A DNA stretch of 64,000 bases from an uncultured delta proteobacterium (lineage in GTDB: Bacteria; Myxococcota; Myxococcia; Myxococcales; Myxococcaceae), in contig CAWCKH010000005.1 of the NCBI GenBank assembly GCA_963796055.1, positions 188,579 to 252,578 on the forward strand, read 5' to 3'. Positions within the stretch are counted from its first letter, which is position 1. The number at the start of each line of letters is the position of its first letter. The notes beneath the pieces are model-generated. The model saw nothing but the letters and a program-made list of their open reading frames with translations. It did not search any database and was not told the DNA's origin. Of the stretch, positions 39,849 through 55,804 are shown piece after piece. Both the position numbers and the translations under genes were made by a program.

Positions 39849-40742
39849 CACCTGCGCGGCTACCTAAATCGCGCGTTCGAGCTGGCGGCCGAGCGCGAGT
39901 GGTGGACCGGGCCCAATCCCGTCGCCGCTGTCCCAGTGCCGAAGGTCCCGAAGTCCCGCGTGGGCGACTACCTGCGCCTGGAGGAGATCCCGAAGGTGCT
40001 CGCCGCTCTCGCCCCCGAGCACCGCGTGATGCTCGCTGCGAGCCTCTACACCGGTCTCCGGAAGGGCGAGCTTTGCGCGCTGCAGAAGCGGGACGTGGAC
40101 CTGGTGAACCGCCGTCTTGTCGTGGGCCGGAGCTGGAACCGGGACACGACCAAAGGCGGGACCTCGATGGTCATTCCGATCCACTCGGAGGCGGTGCCGT
40201 GGTTCGAGCAGGCGATCAAGGCCAGCACCTCGCACCTGGTGTTCCCGCGGGTGGATGGGAAGATGCGCAGCCGCGACACGAAGCTGGCGGACCTGCTCCG
40301 GCGGGCTCTCGTGCGAGCGGGCATCGTGGACCACTACCTCCATCGCTGCCGGAAGCATGGGTGCAAGCACCAGGAGCAGGCTCCGGACGCAGATGCGAGG
40401 CGCTGCCCGAAGCACCGGCTGAAGCTGTGGGCAAAGCCGGTGGCCCGGCGCATCCGCTGGCACGACACCCGGCACAGCGCTGCGACCTTGCTCCTCCAGG
40501 CGGGGGCGAGCATCCCGGTGGTCCAGCGCGTCCTCCGGCACCATGATCCGAAGCTGACCACGAACCTCTACGGTCACCTGGAGGCGGACTGGCTGGGCGG
40601 GCAGATCGAGCGCTTGAAGCTGAATCGGCTCAGTTCGAGCACAGCTCCCCAAACGGACGCGAACACGGACGAGGAAACCGACGCGAGTCCGGACACTTCG
40701 GTGGTAGATCAGGCTCACTGGCTCCGTAGCTCATCTGGATAG
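39849..40742 (+). pseudogene. Tyrosine integrase A (N-terminus deleted; stop codon created at att)
   Basis: HLRGYLNRAF...YTGLRKGE, TTK, WHDTRH, LRH, NLYGHL; in-frame stop at 39834 and no N-terminal domain. Confidence 0.85.
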
Positions 40743-40793
40743 AGCACCGGCCTTCGAAGCCGGGGGTAGCAGGTTCGAGTCCTGCCGGAGTCG
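40720..40793 (+). tRNA. tRNA-Arg(TCG)
   Basis: GGCTCCG TAGCTCATCTGGATAGAGCA CCGGC CTTCGAA GCCGG GGGTA GCAGG TTCGAGT CCTGC CGGAGTC G; complete cloverleaf. Confidence 0.95.
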
Positions 40794-42139
40794 CTTGGCA
40801 AAGGGGGCGAGATACCCCGGGTTTTCTCGCCGGGATTGTGGCTCTGTTGTCCACGGCGGCATCCCGGGTCCCGCGGGGGTCCCGCTCCCGTTCACCACGG
40901 CCTTCGCGCAGACGTCCTCGGGCTCAGGCATCCCCTCGAAGCGCAGCCGGTCCACTCCATCGCGAAGGAAGTCATCCGCGAGGTGCCCGTAGACCTGCTC
41001 CGTCAACTTCGGGTCCCGGTGCCGGAGCACCTTCTGCACGACGACGAGCGGCACCTTCTCACGGAGGAGCAGCGTCGCGGTCGTGTGCCGGAGGTCGTGG
41101 AAGCGAATCGGTCGTACCACGGGCTTTGGCCACAGGCGCATCTGACACTTCGGGCAACGTCGCAGCGTCCCGTCCGCATCGTTCTCGGCGTGTCGGCACC
41201 CGCGGCGGCGGCACACGTGCTTCCAGCCGCGGACGATGCCGGCGCGGCCCAGGGCCCGTCGAAGGACGGCCTCGAGCGGCACCTCGCGGGAGAGCATCGC
41301 GCCCGGGCCGCGACACTGCCGCTTGCGGCAGCTCGAAGAGCACACATGTGGGAAGACGAGTTCCGAGGGTGAACGCTGGAGCGCCTCCTCGAGCCAGGGG
41401 ACCAGCGCCGCGGCGATGGGTACCGCGTCGGCGTGTCCGCCCTTCGTTGTCTCCCGTTCCCAGCTCCTCCGAACGAGGAGAACTCGCGCCTCGACGTCCA
41501 CGTCCTCTCGCCGGAGCGCTGCGAGCTCGCCCTTGCGAAGGCCGGTGTAGATGGCGCAGGCGAACATCGGCCGCCAGCGCGGGTGGAGGTTGGCCAGCAC
41601 GCGCGGAACCTCCTCCACCCGGAGGTAGTCGCCGACGCTGGCCCTGGGCACCTTCCGCTTGCGGACGAGCGCCACCGGGTTACTGCCCGGCCACTTGCCG
41701 ACTCGAATCGCCGCGGCGAAGGCCCGCGAGAGGAACGCCCGCAGGTGGTTGACGGTCTGCGGCCGGAGCCCCTCGGCTTCCTTCGCGTCCAGGAACTGTT
41801 CCACCACGGCGGGTGTGCACGCGTCGAGGCGCCCCTGAGCAAGGGGGCCGGGAGAAGATGACCGCGAACGCTGCCCGCGTTCGACGCGTGGGAGGCGAGC
41901 CGGGCTGAATACATCACGAGCCACCACTCGAGCAGCTCGCCCACGCTGCCCCCGCCGTTGCGGGGCAGTTTCGGGGTGAGACCCTCCTGCTGTCGCCGGG
42001 CATTGAGCTGCAGCTCCTCGGCGAGCGCCTTCGCCGCGGCACGCCTGTTCGGAACGACCGCCCGGCTCCTGCGGATACCGCTCGCGTCGACCCATCGGGC
42101 GAGCCAGATGCCCCGGCTGTTCTTGCGGACCGTCGCCAT
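40731..42139 (-). CDS. Tyrosine integrase B (apparent frameshift near 41845; reads through att into the tRNA antisense strand)
   Basis: N-terminus MATVRKNSRGIWLARWVD in one frame, then YTGLRKGE, TTK, FHDLRH, LRH, VYGHL in another; ends ...PPASKAGALSR*. Confidence 0.85.
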
Positions 42140-43583: not shown

Positions 43584-43796
43584 CTAGAAGTACTGATGCA
43601 TCCCGTGATGCCCCGGGCCGAGAGTGCACTTGCCGCCCTGCGCGTTTGGAGTCCCGCATCGGGGTGCTCGCCTACCCGTCCGGCGGCGTTTGGCTCCAGT
43701 GTCAGGGTCCGTCCAGACGCACTCACCAGTGTGTCCACGTTCAAGCTCACACGAGACAACAGGACCAACGCCGGAAATTGGCTTTCCGCAGTTCAT
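43584..43796 (-). CDS. Small Cys/His protein with two C-x-C-x4-GHxGx[C/H] units
   Basis: MNCGKP...SCELERGHTGEC...RCGTP...KCTLGPGHHGMH, 70 aa. Confidence 0.5.
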   Translation of the reverse strand: MNCGKPISGVGPVVSCELERGHTGECVWTDPDTGAKRRRTGRRAPRCGTPNAQGGKCTLGPGHHGMHQYF

Positions 43797-44156
43797 TTCC
43801 GGGAAGTCTACTAGGGGTACCAACCAGGGGGCCAACGCGCTGGTCCCTGGCCCCGGGCAATTTGCTGTGCCACTGCCGAGGGTAGGGGAAGGGCACGGGG
43901 ACCTCCGAGATGAGTCATCGCAGCTGAGCCTCGCCTCGCTCCGTCTCCGCATCCCAGCAGCCCGGCGCGACCATGCCGCCTTCGACACCGACGCTGGCCG
44001 GGCCCGGCACCTGCTCCGACACCTCGGGAGCTATCAGGCGCCGCGGCTCACGCTCCGGGAGGTGGACGCATACCGTGGGGCACGGCTTCAGGAGAGGACG
44101 CGGCGGGGTGCAGCTCCGGCCCCGGCGACGCTCGACCGCGAAGTCGAGCTCCTGAA

Positions 44157-44238
44157 GCGGGTGCTGGCCTACGCGGTCCGCTCGCGGCTCCTTCTGGAGC
44201 ATCCGCTCCGGGACGTACCGCTACTCCGTAGGCCGAAC
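44157..44238 (+). repeat. 82-bp direct repeat flanking IS66 copy 1 (partner 46532-46613)
   Basis: GCGGGTGCTGGCC...CGTAGGCCGAAC is identical on both sides of the IS. Confidence 0.95.
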
Positions 44239-44297
44239 GTAACCGACCGACGACGGACGTCTTGAGCCGTAGCGGCTGACCGGCAGAGTCGGGCGCC

Positions 44298-44627
44298 ATG
44301 CCCCGACGACCCAGCACCGAGGAGTGGATCGCCCTCCTGGCCGAGTTCGAGCAGAGCGGCCTGCAGCAGAAGGAATTCTGCGCCAAGCACGACCTCTCCA
44401 TCGCCGCATTTCAGTATTGGATGTACAGGAAGGCCAAGAAGCACTCCGAATCGGCAGCCAAGCTTTCCGAGTCCTTCCTGCCCATCGAAGTCGTAGGCTC
44501 TGCCGCGCCTCCAGCGCGGCCAGGGGGAGTGGTTGTGGAGATCGCGCTCGCCGGAGGCATCGTGGTCCGGCTGCCGGCCGGGACCGAGCCCAGGTACGTG
44601 AGCGAGCTGCTTCGGGCGCTGCGGTAG
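44298..44627 (+). CDS. tnpA: IS66 accessory protein TnpA
   Basis: EWIALLAEFEQSGLQQKEFCAKHDLSIAAFQYW HTH; FLPIEV...VEIAL. Confidence 0.88.
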   Translation: MPRRPSTEEWIALLAEFEQSGLQQKEFCAKHDLSIAAFQYWMYRKAKKHSESAAKLSESFLPIEVVGSAAPPARPGGVVVEIALAGGIVVRLPAGTEPRYVSELLRALR

Positions 44628-44634
44628 CCGCCCG

Positions 44635-45234
44635 GTGCTGCTCCTCCCGCGGGCAGTCCGCATCCTCCTCGCCGCGAAGCCCGTGGACATGCGCAACAGC
44701 ATCGACGGGCTCGCCGCCATCATCCGTAACGAGTGGAAGGAGGACCTCTACGCAGGGGACCTCTTCATCTTCGTCAGCCGGCGAGGCGATAGGACGAAGG
44801 TGCTGACCTGGGACAACGGGGGCTTCGTCCTGTTCTACAAGCGGCTCGAGCAGGGCCGCTTCCGGCTCCCGGCCTTCCGCGAGGGTGCGCTCGGAGCGCG
44901 GCTGCAGAGCAGCCAGCTCGCCATGCTGCTCGACGGCATCGACCTCAGCCGCGTCCGCCGGCCCAAGCAGTGGGTCCCCCCGCACCCAGTTTCCAACGAG
45001 GGGGGAGGTATGATCTCTACTGCGCGTTGGCACCAGGCTCCGAAGACCACGAGTGTGCGTGGCGAGACGAAGCCGAACGGCTCGCAGCGGAGCTCGCTCA
45101 AGTCCAGGACCGACAGCAGCAGCTCGAGGGTCAGCTCGCTGCGCTCCAGCGCCACATCTTCGGGCAGCGCAGCGAGAAGATGCCGCCGGTCGCCGAGCAG
45201 CTCCGGGCAGAGAAGCCGGTCGACCCCGCGGTGA
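44635..45234 (+). CDS. tnpB: IS66 accessory protein TnpB
   Basis: PVDMRNSIDGL, LFIFVSRR, KVLTWD..GF.LFYKRLEQGRF; frame extends over the tnpC start. Confidence 0.88.
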   Translation: MLLLPRAVRILLAAKPVDMRNSIDGLAAIIRNEWKEDLYAGDLFIFVSRRGDRTKVLTWDNGGFVLFYKRLEQGRFRLPAFREGALGARLQSSQLAMLLDGIDLSRVRRPKQWVPPHPVSNEGGGMISTARWHQAPKTTSVRGETKPNGSQRSSLKSRTDSSSSRVSSLRSSATSSGSAARRCRRSPSSSGQRSRSTPR

Positions 45235-46490
45235 CGCAGGCGACGCGGCGCGCACGCCGCGAAGCGAGGGCCGCGCTCCCCGAGCGCCTCGTCGAGCACC
45301 GAGTCGCTGACGAGAAGCGGACCTGCCCGAAGTGCGGGAGCTCGGAGCTGCGGCCCGTGGGCGAAGGGAAACGGACGTACTTGTACGAGTACGTGCCGGC
45401 CCGCTTCGAGCGACAAGTGCACGTGCAAGAGACGCTGGCCTGCCGATGCGGCGAAGGCCTCGTCACCGCGGACGGGCCTCGCCGCGTGGTGGACAAGTGC
45501 CAATACGGGCCTGGCCTGCTCGCCCACGTCGTCACGGCGAAGTGCGCCGACAGCATTCCTTTGTACCGCCAGGCCAAGGCGCTGGCCCGCGCCGGCGTGC
45601 CCATCAACCGCACCACGCTCGGAGACCTCTTCCACACCACAGCGGACGTGCTCGCGCCCTTGGCCGCTCGGATTCTCCAGCGGGTGCGCGACGCGCAGCT
45701 GGTCCGAGCGGATGAAACGCCCATCCGCGTCCTTGCGGAGGAGAAGACACGTCGCGGCTACATCTGGACGTTTCGGACGGAGAAGCTCATCGCCTACGAG
45801 TACAGCGCGTCCCGGAGCGGTGAGACGCCCGCGAGGGTGCTCGAAGGCACGAAGGGCTATCTGCTTGTCGACGCGTACAGCGGCTACAACGCCGTCACCC
45901 TGCCCGATGGACGCATCCGCGTGGGCTGCTGGGCGCACGTGCGGCGGAAATTCTTCGACGCGCTCGGCACCGCCCCCGAGGCCCAGGGCATGCTGGACCT
46001 CATCCTTGGCCTGTACCGAGTCGAGCACGCCGCCCGCGACGCGGGCGTCCTCGGCCAGCCGGAGCACCTCCAGCTCCGAGCTGAGCAGAGCGTCCCGCTT
46101 CTCGGGAAAATTCGCGACTGGCTGGCCACACAGGTCCCGCTCCATCCGCCGAAGTCTCCGCTGGGCGAGGCGATCCGCTACGCACGTGGGCAGTGGGAGG
46201 CGCTGGGCCACTTCGTGGAGGGTGCCTCGCTGCCGCTCGACAACAACGCTTCGGAGAACGCGCTCCGCACCGTCGCCCTCGGTCGGAAGAACTTCCTCTT
46301 CGTGGGGCACGACGAAGCCGGAGCCGGACTCGCTGGTCTCTACTCCCTCGTGGCCACCTGCCAGGCGAACGGAGTCAATCCGGAGGCGTACCTCGCGGAT
46401 GTCCTCCTCCGCGTGCAGAGCCACCCGGCGGCGCGGATCGACGAGCTGCTCCCGGACCGGTGGATGCAGCCAGCTCCGAACACCTCCTGA
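45027..46490 (+). CDS. tnpC: IS66 DDE transposase TnpC
   Basis: Leucine zipper then FGQRSEK, CPKCG zinc finger, ADETP, VDAY, CWAHVRRKF, DNNASENALR; start approximate. Confidence 0.93.
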   Translation: MAPGSEDHECAWRDEAERLAAELAQVQDRQQQLEGQLAALQRHIFGQRSEKMPPVAEQLRAEKPVDPAVTQATRRARREARAALPERLVEHRVADEKRTCPKCGSSELRPVGEGKRTYLYEYVPARFERQVHVQETLACRCGEGLVTADGPRRVVDKCQYGPGLLAHVVTAKCADSIPLYRQAKALARAGVPINRTTLGDLFHTTADVLAPLAARILQRVRDAQLVRADETPIRVLAEEKTRRGYIWTFRTEKLIAYEYSASRSGETPARVLEGTKGYLLVDAYSGYNAVTLPDGRIRVGCWAHVRRKFFDALGTAPEAQGMLDLILGLYRVEHAARDAGVLGQPEHLQLRAEQSVPLLGKIRDWLATQVPLHPPKSPLGEAIRYARGQWEALGHFVEGASLPLDNNASENALRTVALGRKNFLFVGHDEAGAGLAGLYSLVATCQANGVNPEAYLADVLLRVQSHPAARIDELLPDRWMQPAPNTS

Positions 46491-47598
46491 CCGCTCAGCT
46501 CGGCCGGAGGATCCAAGCTCGAATCGGTTACGCGGGTGCTGGCCTACGCGGTCCGCTCGCGGCTCCTTCTGGAGCATCCGCTCCGGGACGTACCGCTACT
46601 CCGTAGGCCGAACGTGCGCCGGACGGTACTGGACGAGGAAGGGTTTCAGCGGCTCTTCGCAGCGGCGGAAGAGGCGCTCCGACCCGTCCTCCTGGTGGCC
46701 TTCGACACCGGGATGCGGAAGGCAGAGATTCTGAGGCTGCGCTGGGAACAGCTCGACCTCGCAGCCGGGCACATCCGGCTCGAGGCCGAGGACACGAAGA
46801 CGAACCAAGCCCGCCTGATTGTCCTCACCGAGCGGGTGAAGCACGCGCTCCGTGCTCTCCCCCGTGGACTCGGGCGAGCCTCGGTCTTCGCCAATCCGGC
46901 AACCGGAGCCGCGTGGGCCGACCTTCGAAAGGCGTTCCACCGGGCCCTCGAGACAGCGAAGCTCGAGGGCCTCTGGTTCCACGACCTGCGGCGCAGCTTC
47001 GTCACCCGCGCGCGGAAGCACCGCATCCCCGAGTCGGTGGCGATGCGGATGTCCGGGCACCGCACCCGGGCGGTGTTCGATCGGTACAACGTGGTGGACG
47101 ACGAGGATCTGCGAGCGGCCGTGCGCGCGCTCGAAAATCCAGGACACGTTTAGGACAAAGCGACCAAATGCGCCCCCAGAAACACCAAAGCCCCACCGTC
47201 TAAGGGACGGAAGGGCTTCGGCTTTTCGGAGTTGCGGGGGCCTGCTTTTTGGCCTACCGCGAACCGTTCTCCGGTCGCTGGTGGCTGCCACGCGCGGCAG
47301 AGGCCAGGTTCGTGACCGGCAGAGTCGGGCGCCATGCCCCGACGACCCAGTCCGTAGCCGACGTCCGCCGCCAAAACCCCGTTTGTTCTTCCTTGGACCA
47401 CGAGGGGCCCCAGGCGTCGTGCTGTCTGCGTCGCAGATGCGCGCTACCTCGGCTCCCGAGTCGCGGTCGGACCGTAGGCCGAGCTCGCCGGCACGCGATT
47501 CACCGCCTCGCGCGGTTCGCGGTCTTCGGGAGCCCCCGGTCCAGCCGTCTGCACGACGCCAGGCGCGCGGGGCCTGATACGCTCGGGCGGTGATCGTG

Positions 47599-48858
47599 AT
47601 GAGAGGGGTGCGTGGACTCGGGGCTGCTCTTCTGCTGGCCCTGTTCGCCTGCCCGGTGCCGCCTCCGTCGCCGCCGCCCTTCGACTTCGTGCCGTCGGTC
47701 TTCCCTCCGCATCCGTTCATCGACGTACCAGGGACGGGCCTGCCTCTCTCCTTCGAAGCGACGGCGAGCAGCGGAACGCCCGGGCCGATCTCCATCGAGC
47801 TGGTTGGGCTGCCGCCCGGAGCGACCACCAGTCCACCGCTGCCGGCCACCCTCGTCGTCGGACAGTCGCTGCAGGTGACGCTCTCGGTCACCGCGAGCGA
47901 GGGCGACTTTCCTCTGCAGGCGGTGTTCACTGCGGGCTCCCAGGTTCACGACGCGGGCCTGCTGCTGTCGACCCGCGCCGCTCCGCTGGTCAGAACCTAC
48001 GAGGTGGGCACCCTCCGCTTTCTCGAGTTGACCACCGACGCCGGGACCGCGCGGATCGGACTCGAGACCGCCTGGGGAGGCGCGATCGTCGAGGCGAGCT
48101 TCGACGGCCGAAACGCGGTCAACCGCCACGACGACGGCCGCGAGGTCCAGATCGCTCTGTACGACGGCGCGCGCGACAGCGTGGCGACTCCGTTCGCGTG
48201 GGATCCGGTGCAAGGCGGAGACACTTACGGCCATGGGAGCCCGGTAATCGACGAGGCGCAGACCACGGCGAGCCTGTACCTGAAGACGCTCCCCCTCGAG
48301 TGGATCCCGGACGACAAGGACGGCGGCCCGTCGCAAGGGATCCTCTCGGACGTAGTCTTCGAGCAGTGGGTCTACCCGGTGCCGAATGCATTCCCGATCT
48401 TCCGGGTTCACGTTCGGGTCACCCATCTGGGCACTGACTCTCATCCCACGGCGGGCCAGGAGTTTCCCGCCGCGTACAGCTTGCTCGAGCTCAACCACTT
48501 CCTGGTCCCGTCGGGCTCGGCGTGGGCGCTCGGGCCCGTCACGGATCTCGCCCCGAAGACAGCCTCGGAGATCAGCCACGCCTCGAGCGAGGGCTGGGTC
48601 GCGCGGGCGGACGACGGCGGGTTCGGGTTGACGATCTTTGTGCCCGGCTCCTGCGGAGTGGGGGCCACGCAAGACTTCGCGGGGCCGGGCGGCGAGCTCG
48701 GTAACGGTACAGGGTACTTCCGGCTGAATACCAGTTTCCCGATCGGCCCTTCGCAAGTCCTGGATGCCGATTACTATGTCGCCGCCGGAGACTACCGATC
48801 GATCCGCGAGCGGATCTACGGCCTGCGCGCGGTCAGCCCCGCCGCGCTCTGCCAGTAG
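47599..48858 (+). CDS. Hypothetical lipoprotein with Ig-like and beta-sandwich regions
   Basis: LALFAC lipobox, Pro linker, NRHDDGREVQIALYDG and WDPVQGGD. Confidence 0.65.
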   Translation: MRGVRGLGAALLLALFACPVPPPSPPPFDFVPSVFPPHPFIDVPGTGLPLSFEATASSGTPGPISIELVGLPPGATTSPPLPATLVVGQSLQVTLSVTASEGDFPLQAVFTAGSQVHDAGLLLSTRAAPLVRTYEVGTLRFLELTTDAGTARIGLETAWGGAIVEASFDGRNAVNRHDDGREVQIALYDGARDSVATPFAWDPVQGGDTYGHGSPVIDEAQTTASLYLKTLPLEWIPDDKDGGPSQGILSDVVFEQWVYPVPNAFPIFRVHVRVTHLGTDSHPTAGQEFPAAYSLLELNHFLVPSGSAWALGPVTDLAPKTASEISHASSEGWVARADDGGFGLTIFVPGSCGVGATQDFAGPGGELGNGTGYFRLNTSFPIGPSQVLDADYYVAAGDYRSIRERIYGLRAVSPAALCQ

Positions 48859-50160
48859 ATCGGACCTTCGATTCTCCACGACCCGTTCACCTTCCGCTTC
48901 GGCGTCCCCTTGCCGAACCGCATCCCTGTCCCCCTGAAGCCAACTCTCCCCTCACTCGACTCCTCATCCGAGCCTCCCGGCACGCGCACCCGGACTCCGC
49001 ACGAAACGAGGGCTGGACGGCCACCGGCCTGTGTGCGCCGCGCCCCGGCCCGGGAGGCCGTCCTCAGCAGCCTCACACGGACGAGCCCCTCCACTTCGGA
49101 TCAGCGCGGTTTCTTTCGCTGGCTCGCCGGTGGGATCCCAAGCACTTCACGGTATTTGGCCACCGTGCGTTTGGCGATGTCGATTCCTCGGGCGCGGAGC
49201 AAAGAGACGATCTCATAGTCCGAGTAGGGGCTCCTGGCGTCCTCGGCGGCGACGATCTGCTGGATGTGCTTCGTCACCACCTCGCTGGGGATGTCGTCGC
49301 CGACGACGTGCGACCAGTTCCGCCCGGGCTTCGGGTCCAGCTTGGCGAGGAGCTTGCTCGCATCCACCACCTCGGAGAGGCTGATCTTCAGCTCGCGGGC
49401 AATGGCGGGCAGGTTCTTCGACTCGAGCAGCTCGAGGTGGCGCTTGAGGATGAGCGAGAGGAGCGGGGCCCGGGCATCCTTGAGGCCCGCGGCCTGGATG
49501 AGCAGGCACTCCTGGAGGTCGCGGGCGCCGCAGCCCCTCGGCTCGAGCTGCTGAATTTTCCGGAGCGTCCGCTCGGCCAGCGCCATCGACACGTCCGCCT
49601 CGCTCGCCAGGCGGATGAGGGGGTCGCCCTCGACGTCGGGCAGGGTGAGGTAGCCGTCGTCGTCGAGGTTGCCGAGCACCAGCGAGGCGATGCGCCGCTC
49701 GGCGTCGTTGAGCTTCTCGAAGTCCAGCTGAGTCCAGAGGTCGTGGGCCAGGCCCCCCTTCTTCGCCAGGTTGGCGTAGAACGACAGGGGGTCCTCGGCG
49801 GCGACGTTGCCCTTGTTGGAGGCGGTGCCGGGCTCGTTGAACTGGTAGCTATTGAAGTAGGCGTCCCAGTCGATCTCCGCCGGGCCCTCGCCCTTGACCT
49901 CCTCGGCGCGCTCGGGGACCTTGTCCTCGAGGGCTCCCGGAAGGGGTTCGGTGGTCTCCGCCTCCAGGCTGGCCTCGCCGGGGGCCTTCTCGTCGAGGTT
50001 GCCGTCAGTGGTCTCCTCCGGCCCCTCTAGGAGGGGGTTCTGCTCCAGCTCCTCCCGGACGGTTTCCAGCAGCTCTATCCGGGACAGCTGCAGAAGCTGG
50101 GGGGGCATCGCCAGCGACAGTGAAGATCTGAGGTGCTTGCGCATCAGCGCGTGGATCTCT

Positions 50161-50206
50161 TCCCGCAGGGCGTGAACGGGCACCCCGACGAAATCGGCCA
50201 GAGGGC
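50161..50206 (+). repeat. 46-bp direct repeat flanking IS66 copy 2 (partner 52499-52544)
   Basis: TCCCGCAGGGCGTGAACGGGCACCCCGACGAAATCGGCCAGAGGGC is identical on both sides. Confidence 0.95.
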
Positions 50207-52498
50207 GTAACCGATCGAGCTTGGATCCTCCGGCCGAGCTGAGCGGTCAGGAGGTGTTCGGAGCTGGCTGCATCCACCGGTCCGGGAGCAGCTCGTCGAT
50301 CCGCGCCGCCGGGTGGCTCTGCACGCGGAGGAGGACATCCGCGAGGTACGCCTCCGGATTGACTCCGTTCGCCTGGCAGGTGGCCACGAGGGAGTAGAGA
50401 CCAGCGAGTCCGGCTCCGGCTTCGTCGTGCCCCACGAAGAGGAAGTTCTTCCGACCGAGGGCGACGGTGCGGAGCGCGTTCTCCGAAGCGTTGTTGTCGA
50501 GCGGCAGCGAGGCACCCTCCACGAAGTGGCCCAGCGCCTCCCACTGCCCACGTGCGTAGCGGATCGCCTCGCCCAGCGGAGACTTCGGCGGATGGAGCGG
50601 GACCTGTGTGGCCAGCCAGTCGCGAATTTTCCCGAGAAGCGGGACGCTCTGCTCAGCTCGGAGCTGGAGGTGCTCCGGCTGGCCGAGGACGCCCGCGTCG
50701 CGGGCGGCGTGCTCGACTCGGTACAGGCCAAGGATGAGGTCCAGCATGCCCTGGGCCTCGGGGGCGGTGCCGAGCGCGTCGAAGAATTTCCGCCGCACGT
50801 GCGCCCAGCAGCCCACGCGGATGCGTCCATCGGGCAGGGTGACGGCGTTGTAGCCGCTGTACGCGTCGACAAGCAGATAGCCCTTCGTGCCTTCGAGCAC
50901 CCTCGCGGGCGTCTCACCGCTCCGGGACGCGCTGTACTCGTAGGCGATGAGCTTCTCCGTCCGAAACGTCCAGATGTAGCCGCGACGTGTCTTCTCCTCC
51001 GCAAGGACGCGGATGGGCGTTTCATCCGCTCGGACCAGCTGCGCGTCGCGCACCCGCTGGAGAATCCGAGCGGCCAAGGGCGCGAGCACGTCCGCTGTGG
51101 TGTGGAAGAGGTCTCCGAGCGTGGTGCGGTTGATGGGCACGCCGGCGCGGGCCAGCGCCTTGGCCTGGCGGTACAAAGGAATGCTGTCGGCGCACTTCGC
51201 CGTGACGACGTGGGCGAGCAGGCCAGGCCCGTATTGGCACTTGTCCACCACGCGGCGAGGCCCGTCCGCGGTGACGAGGCCTTCGCCGCATCGGCAGGCC
51301 AGCGTCTCTTGCACGTGCACTTGTCGCTCGAAGCGGGCCGGCACGTACTCGTACAAGTACGTCCGTTTCCCTTCGCCCACGGGCCGCAGCTCCGAGCTCC
51401 CGCACTTCGGGCAGGTCCGCTTCTCGTCAGCGACTCGGTGCTCGACGAGGCGCTCGGGGAGCGCGGCCCTCGCTTCGCGGCGTGCGCGCCGCGTCGCCTG
51501 CGTCACCGCGGGGTCGACCGGCTTCTCTGCCCGGAGCTGCTCGGCGACCGGCGGCATCTTCTCGCTGCGCTGCCCGAAGATGTGGCGCTGGAGCGCAGCG
51601 AGCTGACCCTCGAGCTGCTGCTGTCGGTCCTGGACTTGAGCGAGCTCCGCTGCGAGCCGTTCGGCTTCGTCTCGCCACGCACACTCGTGGTCTTCGGAGC
51701 CTGGTGCCAACGCGCAGTAGAGATCATACCTCCCCCCTCGTTGGAAACTGGGTGCGGGGGGACCCACTGCTTGGGCCGGCGGACGCGGCTGAGGTCGATG
51801 CCGTCGAGCAGCATGGCGAGCTGGCTGCTCTGCAGCCGCGCTCCGAGCGCACCCTCGCGGAAGGCCGGGAGCCGGAAGCGGCCCTGCTCGAGCCGCTTGT
51901 AGAACAGGACGAAGCCCCCGTTGTCCCAGGTCAGCACCTTCGTCCTATCGCCTCGCCGGCTGACGAAGATGAAGAGGTCCCCTGCGTAGAGGTCCTCCTT
52001 CCACTCGTTACGGATGATGGCGGCGAGCCCGTCGATGCTGTTGCGCATGTCCACGGGCTTCGCGGCGAGGAGGATGCGGACTGCCCGCGGGAGGAGCAGC
52101 ACCGGGCGGCTACCGCAGCGCCCGAAGCAGCTCGCTCACGTACCTGGGCTCGGTCCCGGCCGGCAGCCGGACCACGATGCCTCCGGCGAGCGCGATCTCC
52201 ACAACCACTCCCCCTGGCCGCGCTGGAGGCGCGGCAGAGCCTACGACTTCGATGGGCAGGAAGGACTCGGAAAGCTTGGCTGCCGATTCGGAGTGCTTCT
52301 TGGCCTTCCTGTACATCCAATACTGAAATGCGGCGATGGAGAGGTCGTGCTTGGCGCAGAATTCCTTCTGCTGCAGGCCGCTCTGCTCGAACTCGGCCAG
52401 GAGGGCGATCCACTCCTCGGTGCTGGGTCGTCGGGGCATGGCGCCCGACTCTGCCGGTCAGCCGCTACGGCTCAAGACGTCCGTCGTCGGTCGGTTAC
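50207..52498 (-). mobile_element. IS66-family element, copy 2 (inverted; tnpA 52110-52439, tnpB 51503-52102, tnpC 50247-51710)
   Basis: Protein translations identical to copy 1; 2292 bp, one base shorter near the right terminus. Confidence 0.95.
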
Positions 52499-52979
52499 TC
52501 CCGCAGGGCGTGAACGGGCACCCCGACGAAATCGGCCAGAGGGCTGCATTCGACACGCAGGGCCATCGTCTCGACCACGCGTGCAATGCCTGCGGCCCCG
52601 AGCGGGAATCCGCGTTCGCGCGCCAGCTCCTGCTTGAGCTGAGCAATACGCTCCAGTGAGTGCCCACCACGTCGCGCGAGCGTATCCCGGACCTCGCTGT
52701 CCAGTCCGTTGCCTTCGGCCACGTACTCCCTCATCACCCCCGCGAGCTCCAGCTCCAGCGCGCAGGCCCAGAGCGGGTGGCTCTGAATCACCGCGTCGGC
52801 GAACAGGCGCGCGATCACCTCGCGAGCAATGACTTGGACGACCCTCGAGAGGAGTTTCATCGGACCCCCGGAGCTTCCCGGCGCGGGCGATGCTAGCCAA
52901 CTGCGTGCGACGAGTCTCGGAACGGCGCCCGAGGGACAGCCGAATTCGGCCAACACACTTCCGTTGCACGGTAGTCCGT

Positions 52980-53924: not shown

Positions 53925-54133
53925 CCGACGTCCGGGAGGCGGTGAACGCTTGGATCCGGAAATCGGGTGAGTTCGATGCGGTCCTCGACTTCGACGCCGC
54001 CCTCCGCGATCCGCGCCATCCGAAGCGCCTGCTGCCCGAGTACGACAGTGGTGACCACCTCCACCCGAACCGCGCCGGGCACAGGGCGATGGGCGAGGCC
54101 ATCGACGTGCGCCTTTTCGACGGCCCCGCCTAG
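53925..54133 (+). pseudogene. C-terminal fragment of an SGNH/GDSL hydrolase
   Basis: REAVNAWIR...FDAVLDFD..LRDP...YDSGDHLHPNRAGH. Confidence 0.7.
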
Positions 54134-55731
54134 GAGCCTGTAGGGCGTAGAGGTCAGGGCGGCGTGATCCGCTGGGCGGCATGAAGACCTGCCGCCCGTG
54201 GGCGCCGCTGCAGTCGTACCTGCTCCCGCCGTCGCCGGCGGACTGGCTCCCGGAGGGGCACCTCGCCTATTTCGTGCTCGAGGTGGTGGACCAGCTCGAC
54301 GTCGCCGCCATCGAGCGAGCCATTTCCCAGAAGGACCCGCGTGGGGAGCGCCCGTACTCGCCGCGGATGTTGCTGGGGCTGCTCATGTACGGCTACTGCG
54401 TGGGCCTGTTTTCCTCGCGGAGGCTGGCGCGCGGGACGTACGAGGACGTGGCGCTTCGGGTGCTGGCGGGGGAAGAGCATCCGCACTTCACCACCATCAA
54501 CCAATTCCGGCTGGTGCACCGGACGGCCATCGCCGGCCTCTTCGTGCAGGTGCTGGAGCTCTGCCGTCGAGCCGGGTTGGTGAAGCTGGGACACGTGGCG
54601 CTGGACGGGACGAAGCTGCTGGCCAATGCGAGCAAGCACAAGGCGATGAGCTACGAGCGGATGAAGAAGGACGAGACGCGGCTGCGAGGAGAAGTGGAGA
54701 GCCTGCTCACCCAAGCCGACGCGGTGGACGAAGCCGAGGACGCCCGCTACGGCAGAGGCATTGCCCCCGACGACTTGCCGGCCGAGTTGCAGCGTCGCGA
54801 GACGCGGCTCGAGCGCATTCGGCAGGCCAAGGCAGCGCTCGAAGAGGAGGCCCGCGCAGCACGGGCCCGGAGACTTCGAGAGAACGCCGAGGGGCTCGAG
54901 GCGGACGCGCTGAACGCCCAACTACCCGCCCGCCAGCGCAAGACAGCAGCCACCCTCGCCAAGCGGAGCGCCGCTCAAGCGGACCTGCTCGACGGCGGAC
55001 GAAAGGACGACGATGACGACCCGCCCTCAGGCGGTGCCACCGGCCTACCCACCCATCGGGTGAGGGCTCACGTCGACGGCACTCCGAAGTCGAAGGCACA
55101 GCGGAACTTCACCGACCCCGACAGCCGCATCATGGAGAAGAACGGCAGCTTTCTGCAGGCATACAACGCCCAAGTCGTGGTGGACGAAGCCCACCAAGTC
55201 ATTCTCGCGCACGGCCTGTCCAACCAGCCGCCCGACGTCGAGTACCTCGAGCCACTGCTGAGGGCCGCTGTCGCCAACTGCGGGGCGTCACCGGAGAAGG
55301 CCTCTGCGGATTCGGGCTACTTCTCGGCGGAGAACGTCGCGGCGTGCGACTCCTTGGGCATCTCGGCCTACATCTCCGTCGGTCGCGACGCGCACGACGG
55401 GCGCATCACCGACCCACGAACGACTCCGGCGAAGGACGCGATGCGGCTGAAGCTCGAGTCGGAGGAGGGCAGAGCCGTGTACGCGCGCCGGAAGGCCATC
55501 GTCGAGCCTGTCTTCGGGCAGATGAAGGCAGTCCGCGGCTTCCGTCGCCTCTCGATGCGGGGCAGGCAGAAGGCAGCGGGCGAGTGGGGCCTCGTTTGCC
55601 TCACCCACAACCTCCTGAAGCTCTTCCGGGAGGCCTGGCTCCCGGCACTCATGCCCGCGTAGCGCCGACGGGCCGCCAGTCAGCCACCGACGGCGCCCGC
55701 GCCAACGAGAGCGGCTACGCCCTACAGGCTC
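54134..55731 (+). mobile_element. IS1182-family element
   Basis: Perfect 17-bp IR GAGCCTGTAGGGCGTAG / CTACGCCCTACAGGCTC; CTAG on both sides. Confidence 0.9.
54181..55662 (+). CDS. IS1182-family transposase
   Basis: LLPPSPADWLPEGHLA, PYSPRMLL, LDGTKLLANAS, TDPDSRIM, ADSGYFS, RKAIVEPVFG. Confidence 0.92.
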   Translation: MKTCRPWAPLQSYLLPPSPADWLPEGHLAYFVLEVVDQLDVAAIERAISQKDPRGERPYSPRMLLGLLMYGYCVGLFSSRRLARGTYEDVALRVLAGEEHPHFTTINQFRLVHRTAIAGLFVQVLELCRRAGLVKLGHVALDGTKLLANASKHKAMSYERMKKDETRLRGEVESLLTQADAVDEAEDARYGRGIAPDDLPAELQRRETRLERIRQAKAALEEEARAARARRLRENAEGLEADALNAQLPARQRKTAATLAKRSAAQADLLDGGRKDDDDDPPSGGATGLPTHRVRAHVDGTPKSKAQRNFTDPDSRIMEKNGSFLQAYNAQVVVDEAHQVILAHGLSNQPPDVEYLEPLLRAAVANCGASPEKASADSGYFSAENVAACDSLGISAYISVGRDAHDGRITDPRTTPAKDAMRLKLESEEGRAVYARRKAIVEPVFGQMKAVRGFRRLSMRGRQKAAGEWGLVCLTHNLLKLFREAWLPALMPA

Positions 55732-55804
55732 CTAGCGGCGCGCGCGACCGGGGTGTTGGGTCCCGGTCGCGGCAGCCTCCGGAACGGAGTAGGGTCGCCA
55801 GCCA

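Follow-up and report, generated by a model that had tools for sequence, protein, structure and literature searches.

The stretch of DNA examined here (the window, 64,000 nucleotides) comprises positions 188579–252578 of contig C5 in a 5.53-Mb assembly of an uncultured soil myxobacterium, a long-read metagenome bin of seven contigs. This assembly is labelled G000 and its contigs in the style C1–C7; in the same way, L0xx labels denote metagenome loci and X1–X4 style labels public runs. The window contains two copies of an insertion sequence (IS) of the IS66 family, which lie in opposite orientations and interrupt an integrase gene and a sigma-54-like gene, respectively. Each is bounded by a long direct repeat of its own target, 82 bp at copy 1 and 46 bp at copy 2, and a third copy elsewhere in the assembly is also listed below. 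The features concerned are as follows, in window coordinates unless a contig is named; the left and right terminal inverted repeats of the element are abbreviated IRL and IRR.

44239–46531, plus strand: IS66-family element, copy 1, 2293 bp, with ends GTAACCGACCGACG... and ...CGAATCGGTTAC (junction reading, Pfam and NCBIfam matches)
44298–44627, plus strand: tnpA of copy 1, 109 amino acids, IS66 accessory protein (NF047593 IS66_ISAeme5_TnpA, E 3.6e-16, 59.4 bits against a cut-off of 28)
44635–45234, plus strand: tnpB of copy 1, 199 amino acids to the stop (PF05717 TnpB_IS66 over residues 9–108, E 5.5e-34)
44970–46490, plus strand: tnpC of copy 1, DDE transposase of 506 amino acids (PF03050, E 1.5e-85; also PF13817, PF13005, a zinc finger, and PF13007)
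50207–52498, minus strand: IS66-family element, copy 2, 2292 bp, inverted relative to copy 1 (repeat finder and junction reading)
50247–51767, 51503–52102 and 52110–52439, minus strand: tnpC, tnpB and tnpA of copy 2 (open reading frames)
C4, 26220–28511: IS66-family element, copy 3, 99.87% identical
44157–44238: 82-bp target duplication of copy 1, left, adjoining IRL (100% identical to its partner)
46532–46613: 82-bp target duplication of copy 1, right, adjoining IRR (100% identical)
50161–50206: 46-bp target duplication of copy 2, beside IRR (direct repeat D3, 100% identical)
52499–52544: 46-bp target duplication of copy 2, beside IRL (direct repeat D3, 100% identical)
43624–44238, plus strand: 5' part of a tyrosine-recombinase (integrase) gene split by copy 1, with a restored frame of 389 codons
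46532–47153, plus strand: 3' part of the integrase gene (PF00589, E 2.5e-20)
49101–50206, minus strand: 3' part of a sigma-54-like gene split by copy 2 (PF04963, PF04552, PF00309)
52499–52860, minus strand: 5' part of the sigma-54-like gene, starting MKLLSRV, with a stop codon made by the first IS bases

The ends of the element were read at four junctions, as GTAACCGACCGACG... on the left and ...CGA(A)TCGGTTAC on the right, which places copy 1 at 44239–46531 and copy 2 at 50207–52498 on the minus strand. The two copies form a perfect inverted repeat of 2284 nt (44239–46522 and 50215–52498) and are 99.956% identical, the sole difference being a 1-nt insertion or deletion (indel) that gives copy 1 an additional A close to its right end. 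Because the contigs of all four public runs do not have this A, it is probably a consensus error. In all, the assembly has three copies of the element, 99.87–100% identical to one another and each with full-length TnpB and TnpC, and the element has been recently active.

The element is a complete IS66-family IS. Its TnpC has the catalytic domain (PF03050, covering profile positions 1–282 of 284), zinc finger, leucine zipper and C-terminal element of the family, as judged from Pfam, and the accessory genes lie upstream of it in the order tnpA-tnpB-tnpC. The consensus of IS66 terminal inverted repeats begins 5'-GTAA, and so do the terminal repeats here, GTAACCGACCGACGACGGAC and GTAACCGATCGAGCTTGGAT, which match at 14 of 20 positions. 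The departure from the family lies in the target duplications, which are 82, 46 and 11 bp instead of the typical 8 bp; family assignment in ISfinder rests on transposase similarity, not on target-duplication length. Membership of the IS1634 family, marked by a single IS4-related DDE transposase, does not fit an element with three genes whose TnpC has PF03050 and no IS4-type domain. The 199-codon tnpB frame runs 265 nt into tnpC. In IS66 elements the tnpB stop and the tnpC start usually overlap only briefly, and the long overlap here may be a mere effect of high G+C content.

Each of the two copies in the window is flanked by its own distinct repeat, perfect in both cases and directly adjoining the IS termini. 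At copy 1 the repeat was found as an 84-nt match (direct repeat D1, 44157–44240 and 46532–46615, 100% identical), which is the 82-nt target followed by ‘GT’; these two letters are the start of the IS and match the next letters of the flank by chance. Chance is excluded as the origin of the repeats themselves, because exact matches of 46 and 82 nt sit precisely at the IS ends. Both long repeats are true target duplications made at insertion, since the uninterrupted genes carry each stretch once. Three integrase paralogues in the same genome, with 91%, 69% and 62% amino acid identity to the restored protein, align to it with no gaps over 270–274 residues; these alignments span the repeat-encoded residues 183–210, and the 82-bp stretch is present once in each. 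Database homologues of the integrase, at 374–394 amino acids, are similar in length to the restored gene.

The second interrupted gene has a counterpart in another metagenome assembly, where an 11.67-kb contig encodes an intact protein of 519 amino acids (P0004). The 5' piece of the sigma-54-like gene is identical to it at 121 of 121 positions (residues 1–121) and the 3' piece at 348 of 351. Both pieces match residues 114–121 of P0004, which therefore has the 46-bp stretch once and is a natural, uninterrupted allele of this gene. The duplicated stretch is likewise single in P0001, an intact homologue that is more distant. Pre-existing tandem duplication of the target and site-specific recombination were rejected as origins of the repeats, as the repeat differs from copy to copy and the intact homologues have the stretch once.

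The initial annotation of this DNA, made from the sequence alone, had described two near-identical IS66 elements flanked by perfect, target-derived repeats of 82 and 46 bp, and had stated that removal of the IS and one repeat restores an open frame in both interrupted genes. The profile matches in Pfam and NCBIfam bear out the first part, the coordinates given for both copies and all four repeats hold under the repeat finder and junction reading, the paralogues and intact homologues show the target origin, and the frames restored in silico run to 389 and 521 codons.

Copy 3 is flanked by an 11-bp repeat, GATGACCCGAC, so that with 82, 46 and 11 bp none of the three copies has the 8 bp of the family. 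An 8-bp repeat at other copies is what the initial annotation had named as evidence against its proposal, and the third copy does not supply one. The nearest relatives mix lengths: an element of 73–74% nucleotide identity (TnpC 72–73% identical at the amino acid level) has three insertions in two genomes, flanked by 8, 8 and 11 bp, the 11-bp insertion coming from another long-read bin. Among more distant Myxococcaceae relatives (TnpC 51–61% identical), we compared 42 insertions in which both ends are defined by inverted repeats. Twenty-six of these have exact repeats of 8 bp and one has 8 bp with a mismatch; the remainder have 7 bp (two), 9 bp (one) or 0–1 bp (12), and none has 10 bp or more. 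Left out of the 42 were loci without an end pair (11 of 38 in one set, several in others), loci ending inside the IS, and three duplicates. Where there were several candidate end pairs, the one chosen encloses the transposase match and has a repeat, a choice biased toward finding repeats. Repeats of at least 10 bp thus occur at three of three insertions of this element versus none of 42 in the distant relatives, a split of 1 in 14190 as calculated by hand, for which related elements are not independent draws.

Within the same assembly, six other IS families with 19 full copies served as controls. Their best flanking repeats are 3–11 nt when ±10 nt of freedom is allowed at each end, and none of the 19 has a long flanking repeat. 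Repeats of at least 30 bp are therefore found at two of the three copies of this element versus 0 of 19 copies of other IS (Fisher p ~0.013, by hand arithmetic). A scan of the whole 5.53-Mb assembly for isolated exact direct repeats of at least 30 nt, spaced 0.3–30 kb apart, gave 20 pairs, of which the 84-nt pair at copy 1 is the longest; the two IS66 pairs aside, most of them mark the borders of 3–18-kb islands and consist of tRNA gene 3' ends. Taken together, the control copies and the scan argue that long repeats around an IS are not a general product of this assembly.

Metagenome contigs add to this picture. Thirteen metagenome loci with relatives of TnpC were compared, among which L036 holds the left end of a relative 91–97% identical to the element and L035 the right end of such a relative. 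The left flank at L036 ends ...GCCGCAACTGCGAGGATGG and the right flank at L035 opens with the same 19 letters. The two flanks are collinear and belong to a single gene for an IS110-like transposase, with breakpoints that overlap by exactly 19 bp (...NIAATARM | AATARMDPVTARL...), and this is the only suffix-prefix match among all the left and right flanks compared. The overlap is probably a 19-bp duplication in a close metagenomic relative.

In two public soil runs, X2 and X4, there are contigs in which an end of the element adjoins sequence that holds no IS in the present genome; the three sites lie on contig C4 near 240199, 3427290 and 665283 (minus strand), and one junction is visible at each. 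As these places are empty in the present assembly, the element is mobile and polymorphic in the sampled populations. One contig of X3 ends at 46586, the expected branch point between ‘repeat to IS’ and ‘repeat to flank’; we give it no weight because a nearby strain difference would look alike.

We also considered a tandem repeat at L038 (4574–4735, 84 bp x 1.9, 96% matches) as a footprint of insertion. Its first base adjoins the right end of a relative 85% identical to the IS, but it was rejected, being intergenic and resembling the 79–83-bp arrays of repetitive extragenic palindrome (REP)-like sequences; we judge it to be a pre-existing REP-like array. Such tandem arrays, made of GC-rich units of 79–83 bp with the motif GACTGCGGCCGCCCTGA, lie in the present assembly at C3:69983–70857 and C6:101618–102444, and the units are REP-like intergenic repeats, single copies of which are also dispersed across the genome. 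Two relatives of the IS found in metagenomes have in turn been broken by inserts of 1.3–1.5 kb (L034:384–1865 and L036:885–2213); at L034 the two IS parts overlap by 9 bp, which resembles a target duplication of the second insert.

How much target a DDE transposon duplicates reflects the geometry of the complex that joins its ends to the target, and each family normally has a fixed length. For IS66, the chemistry of transposition is poorly known, and so is what TnpA and TnpB do in it. The reading we favour, and hold to be fairly likely, is that in this clade strand transfer of the two ends proceeds without a fixed stagger. As DDE transposases do in general, TnpC would join one 3' end of the element to each strand of the target; the joining events would not keep to the 8-bp stagger that is fixed in the family and could land 8 to ~80 bp apart; and host repair synthesis would then fill the two single-stranded gaps, by which the whole interval would be copied to both sides of the element. 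Staggered strand transfer with gap repair, and a cause seated in the element rather than in the host, are what the footprints suggest. Insertions of the element would then carry variable and sometimes very large target duplications, 11, 46 and 82 bp here and probably 19 bp in the close metagenomic relative. The corresponding statement about evolution seems fairly likely to us as well: that this IS66 clade has lost the fixed 8-bp spacing and inserts with 8 to more than 80 bp, and would be a second, unrelated transposase family behaving like IS1634/IS1549. On this view, relatives with 72% TnpC identity make mostly 8 bp and those with 51–61% strictly 7–9 bp.

Several observations weigh against this reading. 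It draws on three insertions, all from one long-read metagenome bin, together with the supporting hints above. We looked in TnpC and in the terminal repeats for a sequence correlate of long duplications by comparison with 8-bp relatives and found none: TnpC departs from theirs only in a 3-residue deletion around position 270, four clade-specific substitutions and small indels at its termini, one of which is a 14-residue stretch near residue 5 absent from the 8-bp relatives, and the terminal repeats, with 14 of 20 positions matching, fall inside the 14–20 range of 8-bp elements. Nor do the targets supply a cause: a hairpin or cruciform in the duplicated stretches was rejected, as they fold no better than shuffled sequence (z -1.39 for the 82-bp stretch, with an 8-bp stem near its ends; z -0.21 and no stem for the 46-bp stretch). 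In the low-depth contigs of the four best runs, no contig joins a flank from the window to the IS. L036 is from one sample and L035 from another, and over the 60 nt of IS that both contain there are two mismatches, so the 19-bp overlap could reflect two separate insertions. Finally, all five short-read contigs that hold an 84–96% relative together with both flanks have no flanking repeat (0–3 bp); we judge these to be chimeric joins through a multi-copy repeat, which support neither 8 bp nor long repeats. What the initial annotation had proposed, an IS66 subgroup that transfers its two ends at widely staggered positions, thus stands in part: repeats other than 8 bp are found at all three copies, while the stagger is read from the footprint and the subgroup amounts to three insertions.

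Of the other explanations, an assembly artefact survives best, although we regard it as unlikely. The true duplication would be 8 bp at both sites, and a consensus built from reads with the IS and reads of the empty site would run one flank 38 or 74 bp past the junction. The genome is a seven-contig metagenome bin in which copies of an IS are distinguished by dispersed single-base indels of the kind usual in a long-read consensus, copy 1 has the extra A missing from the four public runs, and the second target gene has a natural empty allele; a mixed population of filled and empty sites is the condition under which such an overshoot is possible, and the allele therefore counts against the reading favoured above. 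The same holds for the truncated 5' piece ending in the IS (P0003), a junction-bearing protein for which the present assembly is the sole source on record. An imperfect tandem duplication of ~425 bp at C6:186636–187473, at most 250 bp from the contig end, may itself be an assembly artefact, which would bear on trust in the junction-level detail of the bin and indicates that duplication artefacts may occur in it. Against this, the effect would be needed at two of the three copies of one element, yet none of the 19 control copies from the other six IS families shows it; the repeats have no mismatch and stop precisely where the IS begins; and overshoot does not explain the 11 bp at copy 3, the 11 bp in the other long-read bin or the 19 bp in the short-read contigs.

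Rather less probable, in our view, is that the duplications are real but made by the host, with one end joined normally and the second completed by replication or repair at a distant nick, gap or fork. This would be the same ill-understood path as that of restriction-modification units, which insert with long target duplications, and long variable duplications around inserts without a transposase are documented in many bacteria (PMC2853133, in the part available). The present genome may hold a case of its own: at C4:2056609–2059171, at the 3' end of a release-factor-3-like gene, a 2.46-kb non-IS insert with a 485-codon frame and no transposase is flanked by a direct repeat of ~66 bp with three mismatches, possibly an older ‘insertion with long target duplication’ separate from IS66. 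That TnpC and the terminal repeats offer nothing distinctive would also suit a host route. Against it, none of the 19 copies of other IS families in this host has a long duplication; all six junctions lie exactly at the IS termini, as for transposase-catalysed joining at both ends; and the duplications other than 8 bp follow the clade of the element across at least two host genera.

Very improbable is a third route, in which two nearby 8-bp insertions in the same orientation, on sister chromosomes or in different strains, recombined inside the IS to leave one IS and a duplicated interval: such recombination between IS66 copies is documented (PMC6778807, in the part available), the element occupies different places in different samples, showing that independent insertions happen, and 12 of the 42 relatives have no duplication, as expected after recombination between copies, but it would take a pair of independent, like-oriented insertions no more than 82 bp apart in a 5.5-Mb genome and a second such pair no more than 46 bp apart, with further pairs 3 and 11 bp apart for the 11- and 19-bp cases, and no such product is found among the 42 insertions of relatives.

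We turn to the surroundings of the two copies in the window. An 18.5-kb island holds both, and its two borders are marked by a 44-bp direct repeat of the 3' end of a tRNA-Arg gene:

40752–40795: left 44-bp repeat of the island, at the 3' end of tRNA-Arg(tcg) (40720–40794); C5, 229330–229373
59301–59344: right 44-bp repeat of the island; C5, 247879–247922

Most of the other frames of this island have no Pfam match, and the integrase broken by copy 1 may be the island's own. Orthologous empty sites were sought in 12 other genomes of the genus, none of which reaches a junction, and the islands are specific to this strain. Some 700 bp downstream of copy 1, where the likeness to the paralogous integrase loci stops, an isolated 38-nt fragment (47313–47350, plus strand) is 100% identical to IS positions 39–76 (44277–44314), a segment just upstream of tnpA that includes the tnpA start. 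Another IS, of ~1.6 kb, lies at 54130–55742 and encodes a 493-amino-acid transposase with DDE_Tnp_1 and DUF772 domains between ends beginning CTAGGAGCCTGTAGGGCG...; it is present at six or more places in the genome, two of them at ends of contig C1.

A search for further full copies of the IS66-family element at 75% identity or more found none in species-representative genomes (201 of the family, 13 of the genus, 363 of the order and 401 of the phylum) or in genome contigs, and viral contigs gave no matches; what these searches returned was a truncated 91% copy (G091) and end fragments (G058).

The element resembles IS66 of Agrobacterium and ISPa75 of Pseudomonas in the domains of tnpA, tnpB and tnpC, in its size of ~2.3 kb and in terminal repeats starting GTAA, and differs from them in that theirs are 8-bp duplications and those here are 82, 46 and 11 bp. 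IS1630 of Mycoplasma, which we take to be a member of the IS30 family, differs in belonging to another family and in its narrower length range. The long variable duplications of IS1549 and IS1634 have been known since the late 1990s. These elements, of the IS1634 family related to IS4, are alike in having long variable direct repeats, a likeness in behaviour only: they encode a single IS4-type DDE protein without tnpA and tnpB and have Mycoplasma and Mycobacterium as hosts, whereas the TnpC here has PF03050.

The background on which the initial annotation had leaned holds in the parts of the literature that bear on it. IS66 duplicates 8 bp, three elements with unique 8-bp repeats being listed in the available part of one paper (PMC6778807), and all the duplications quoted for ISPa75 are 8 bp, five of ten being written out in the part at hand (PMC12888890). 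For IS1634 and IS1549, direct repeats vary by copy from 8 to 514 bp, with no mechanistic model as of 2008 according to the section available (PMC2266710). Duplications of IS1630 are 19–26 bp, as the available part of another source has it (PMC2853133). That part also describes restriction-modification units, in Helicobacter, Haemophilus and others, inserting with long target duplications, alike in the tens to hundreds of base pairs duplicated and in a length that varies from site to site (PMC2853133). These insertions differ in having neither a transposase nor terminal inverted repeats, where the present case is a complete IS with junctions at its ends; of the traits of the ‘insertion with long target duplication’ class, a duplication of more than 30 bp is the only one that it shares, at two of its three sites, and we do not place it there. 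A literature search found no report of long duplications in the IS66 family, a search made without ISfinder, where one may exist among its 254 IS66 entries (PMC12888890, in the part available).

An IS66 member with duplications of 11–82 bp beside close relatives with 8 bp offers a comparative handle on what sets the stagger. Tools for IS annotation that seek 8-bp repeats would misjudge such insertions. If strand transfer without a fixed stagger is indeed at work here, the element and its kin would form a graded series of natural relatives in which the determinant of target stagger could be mapped.

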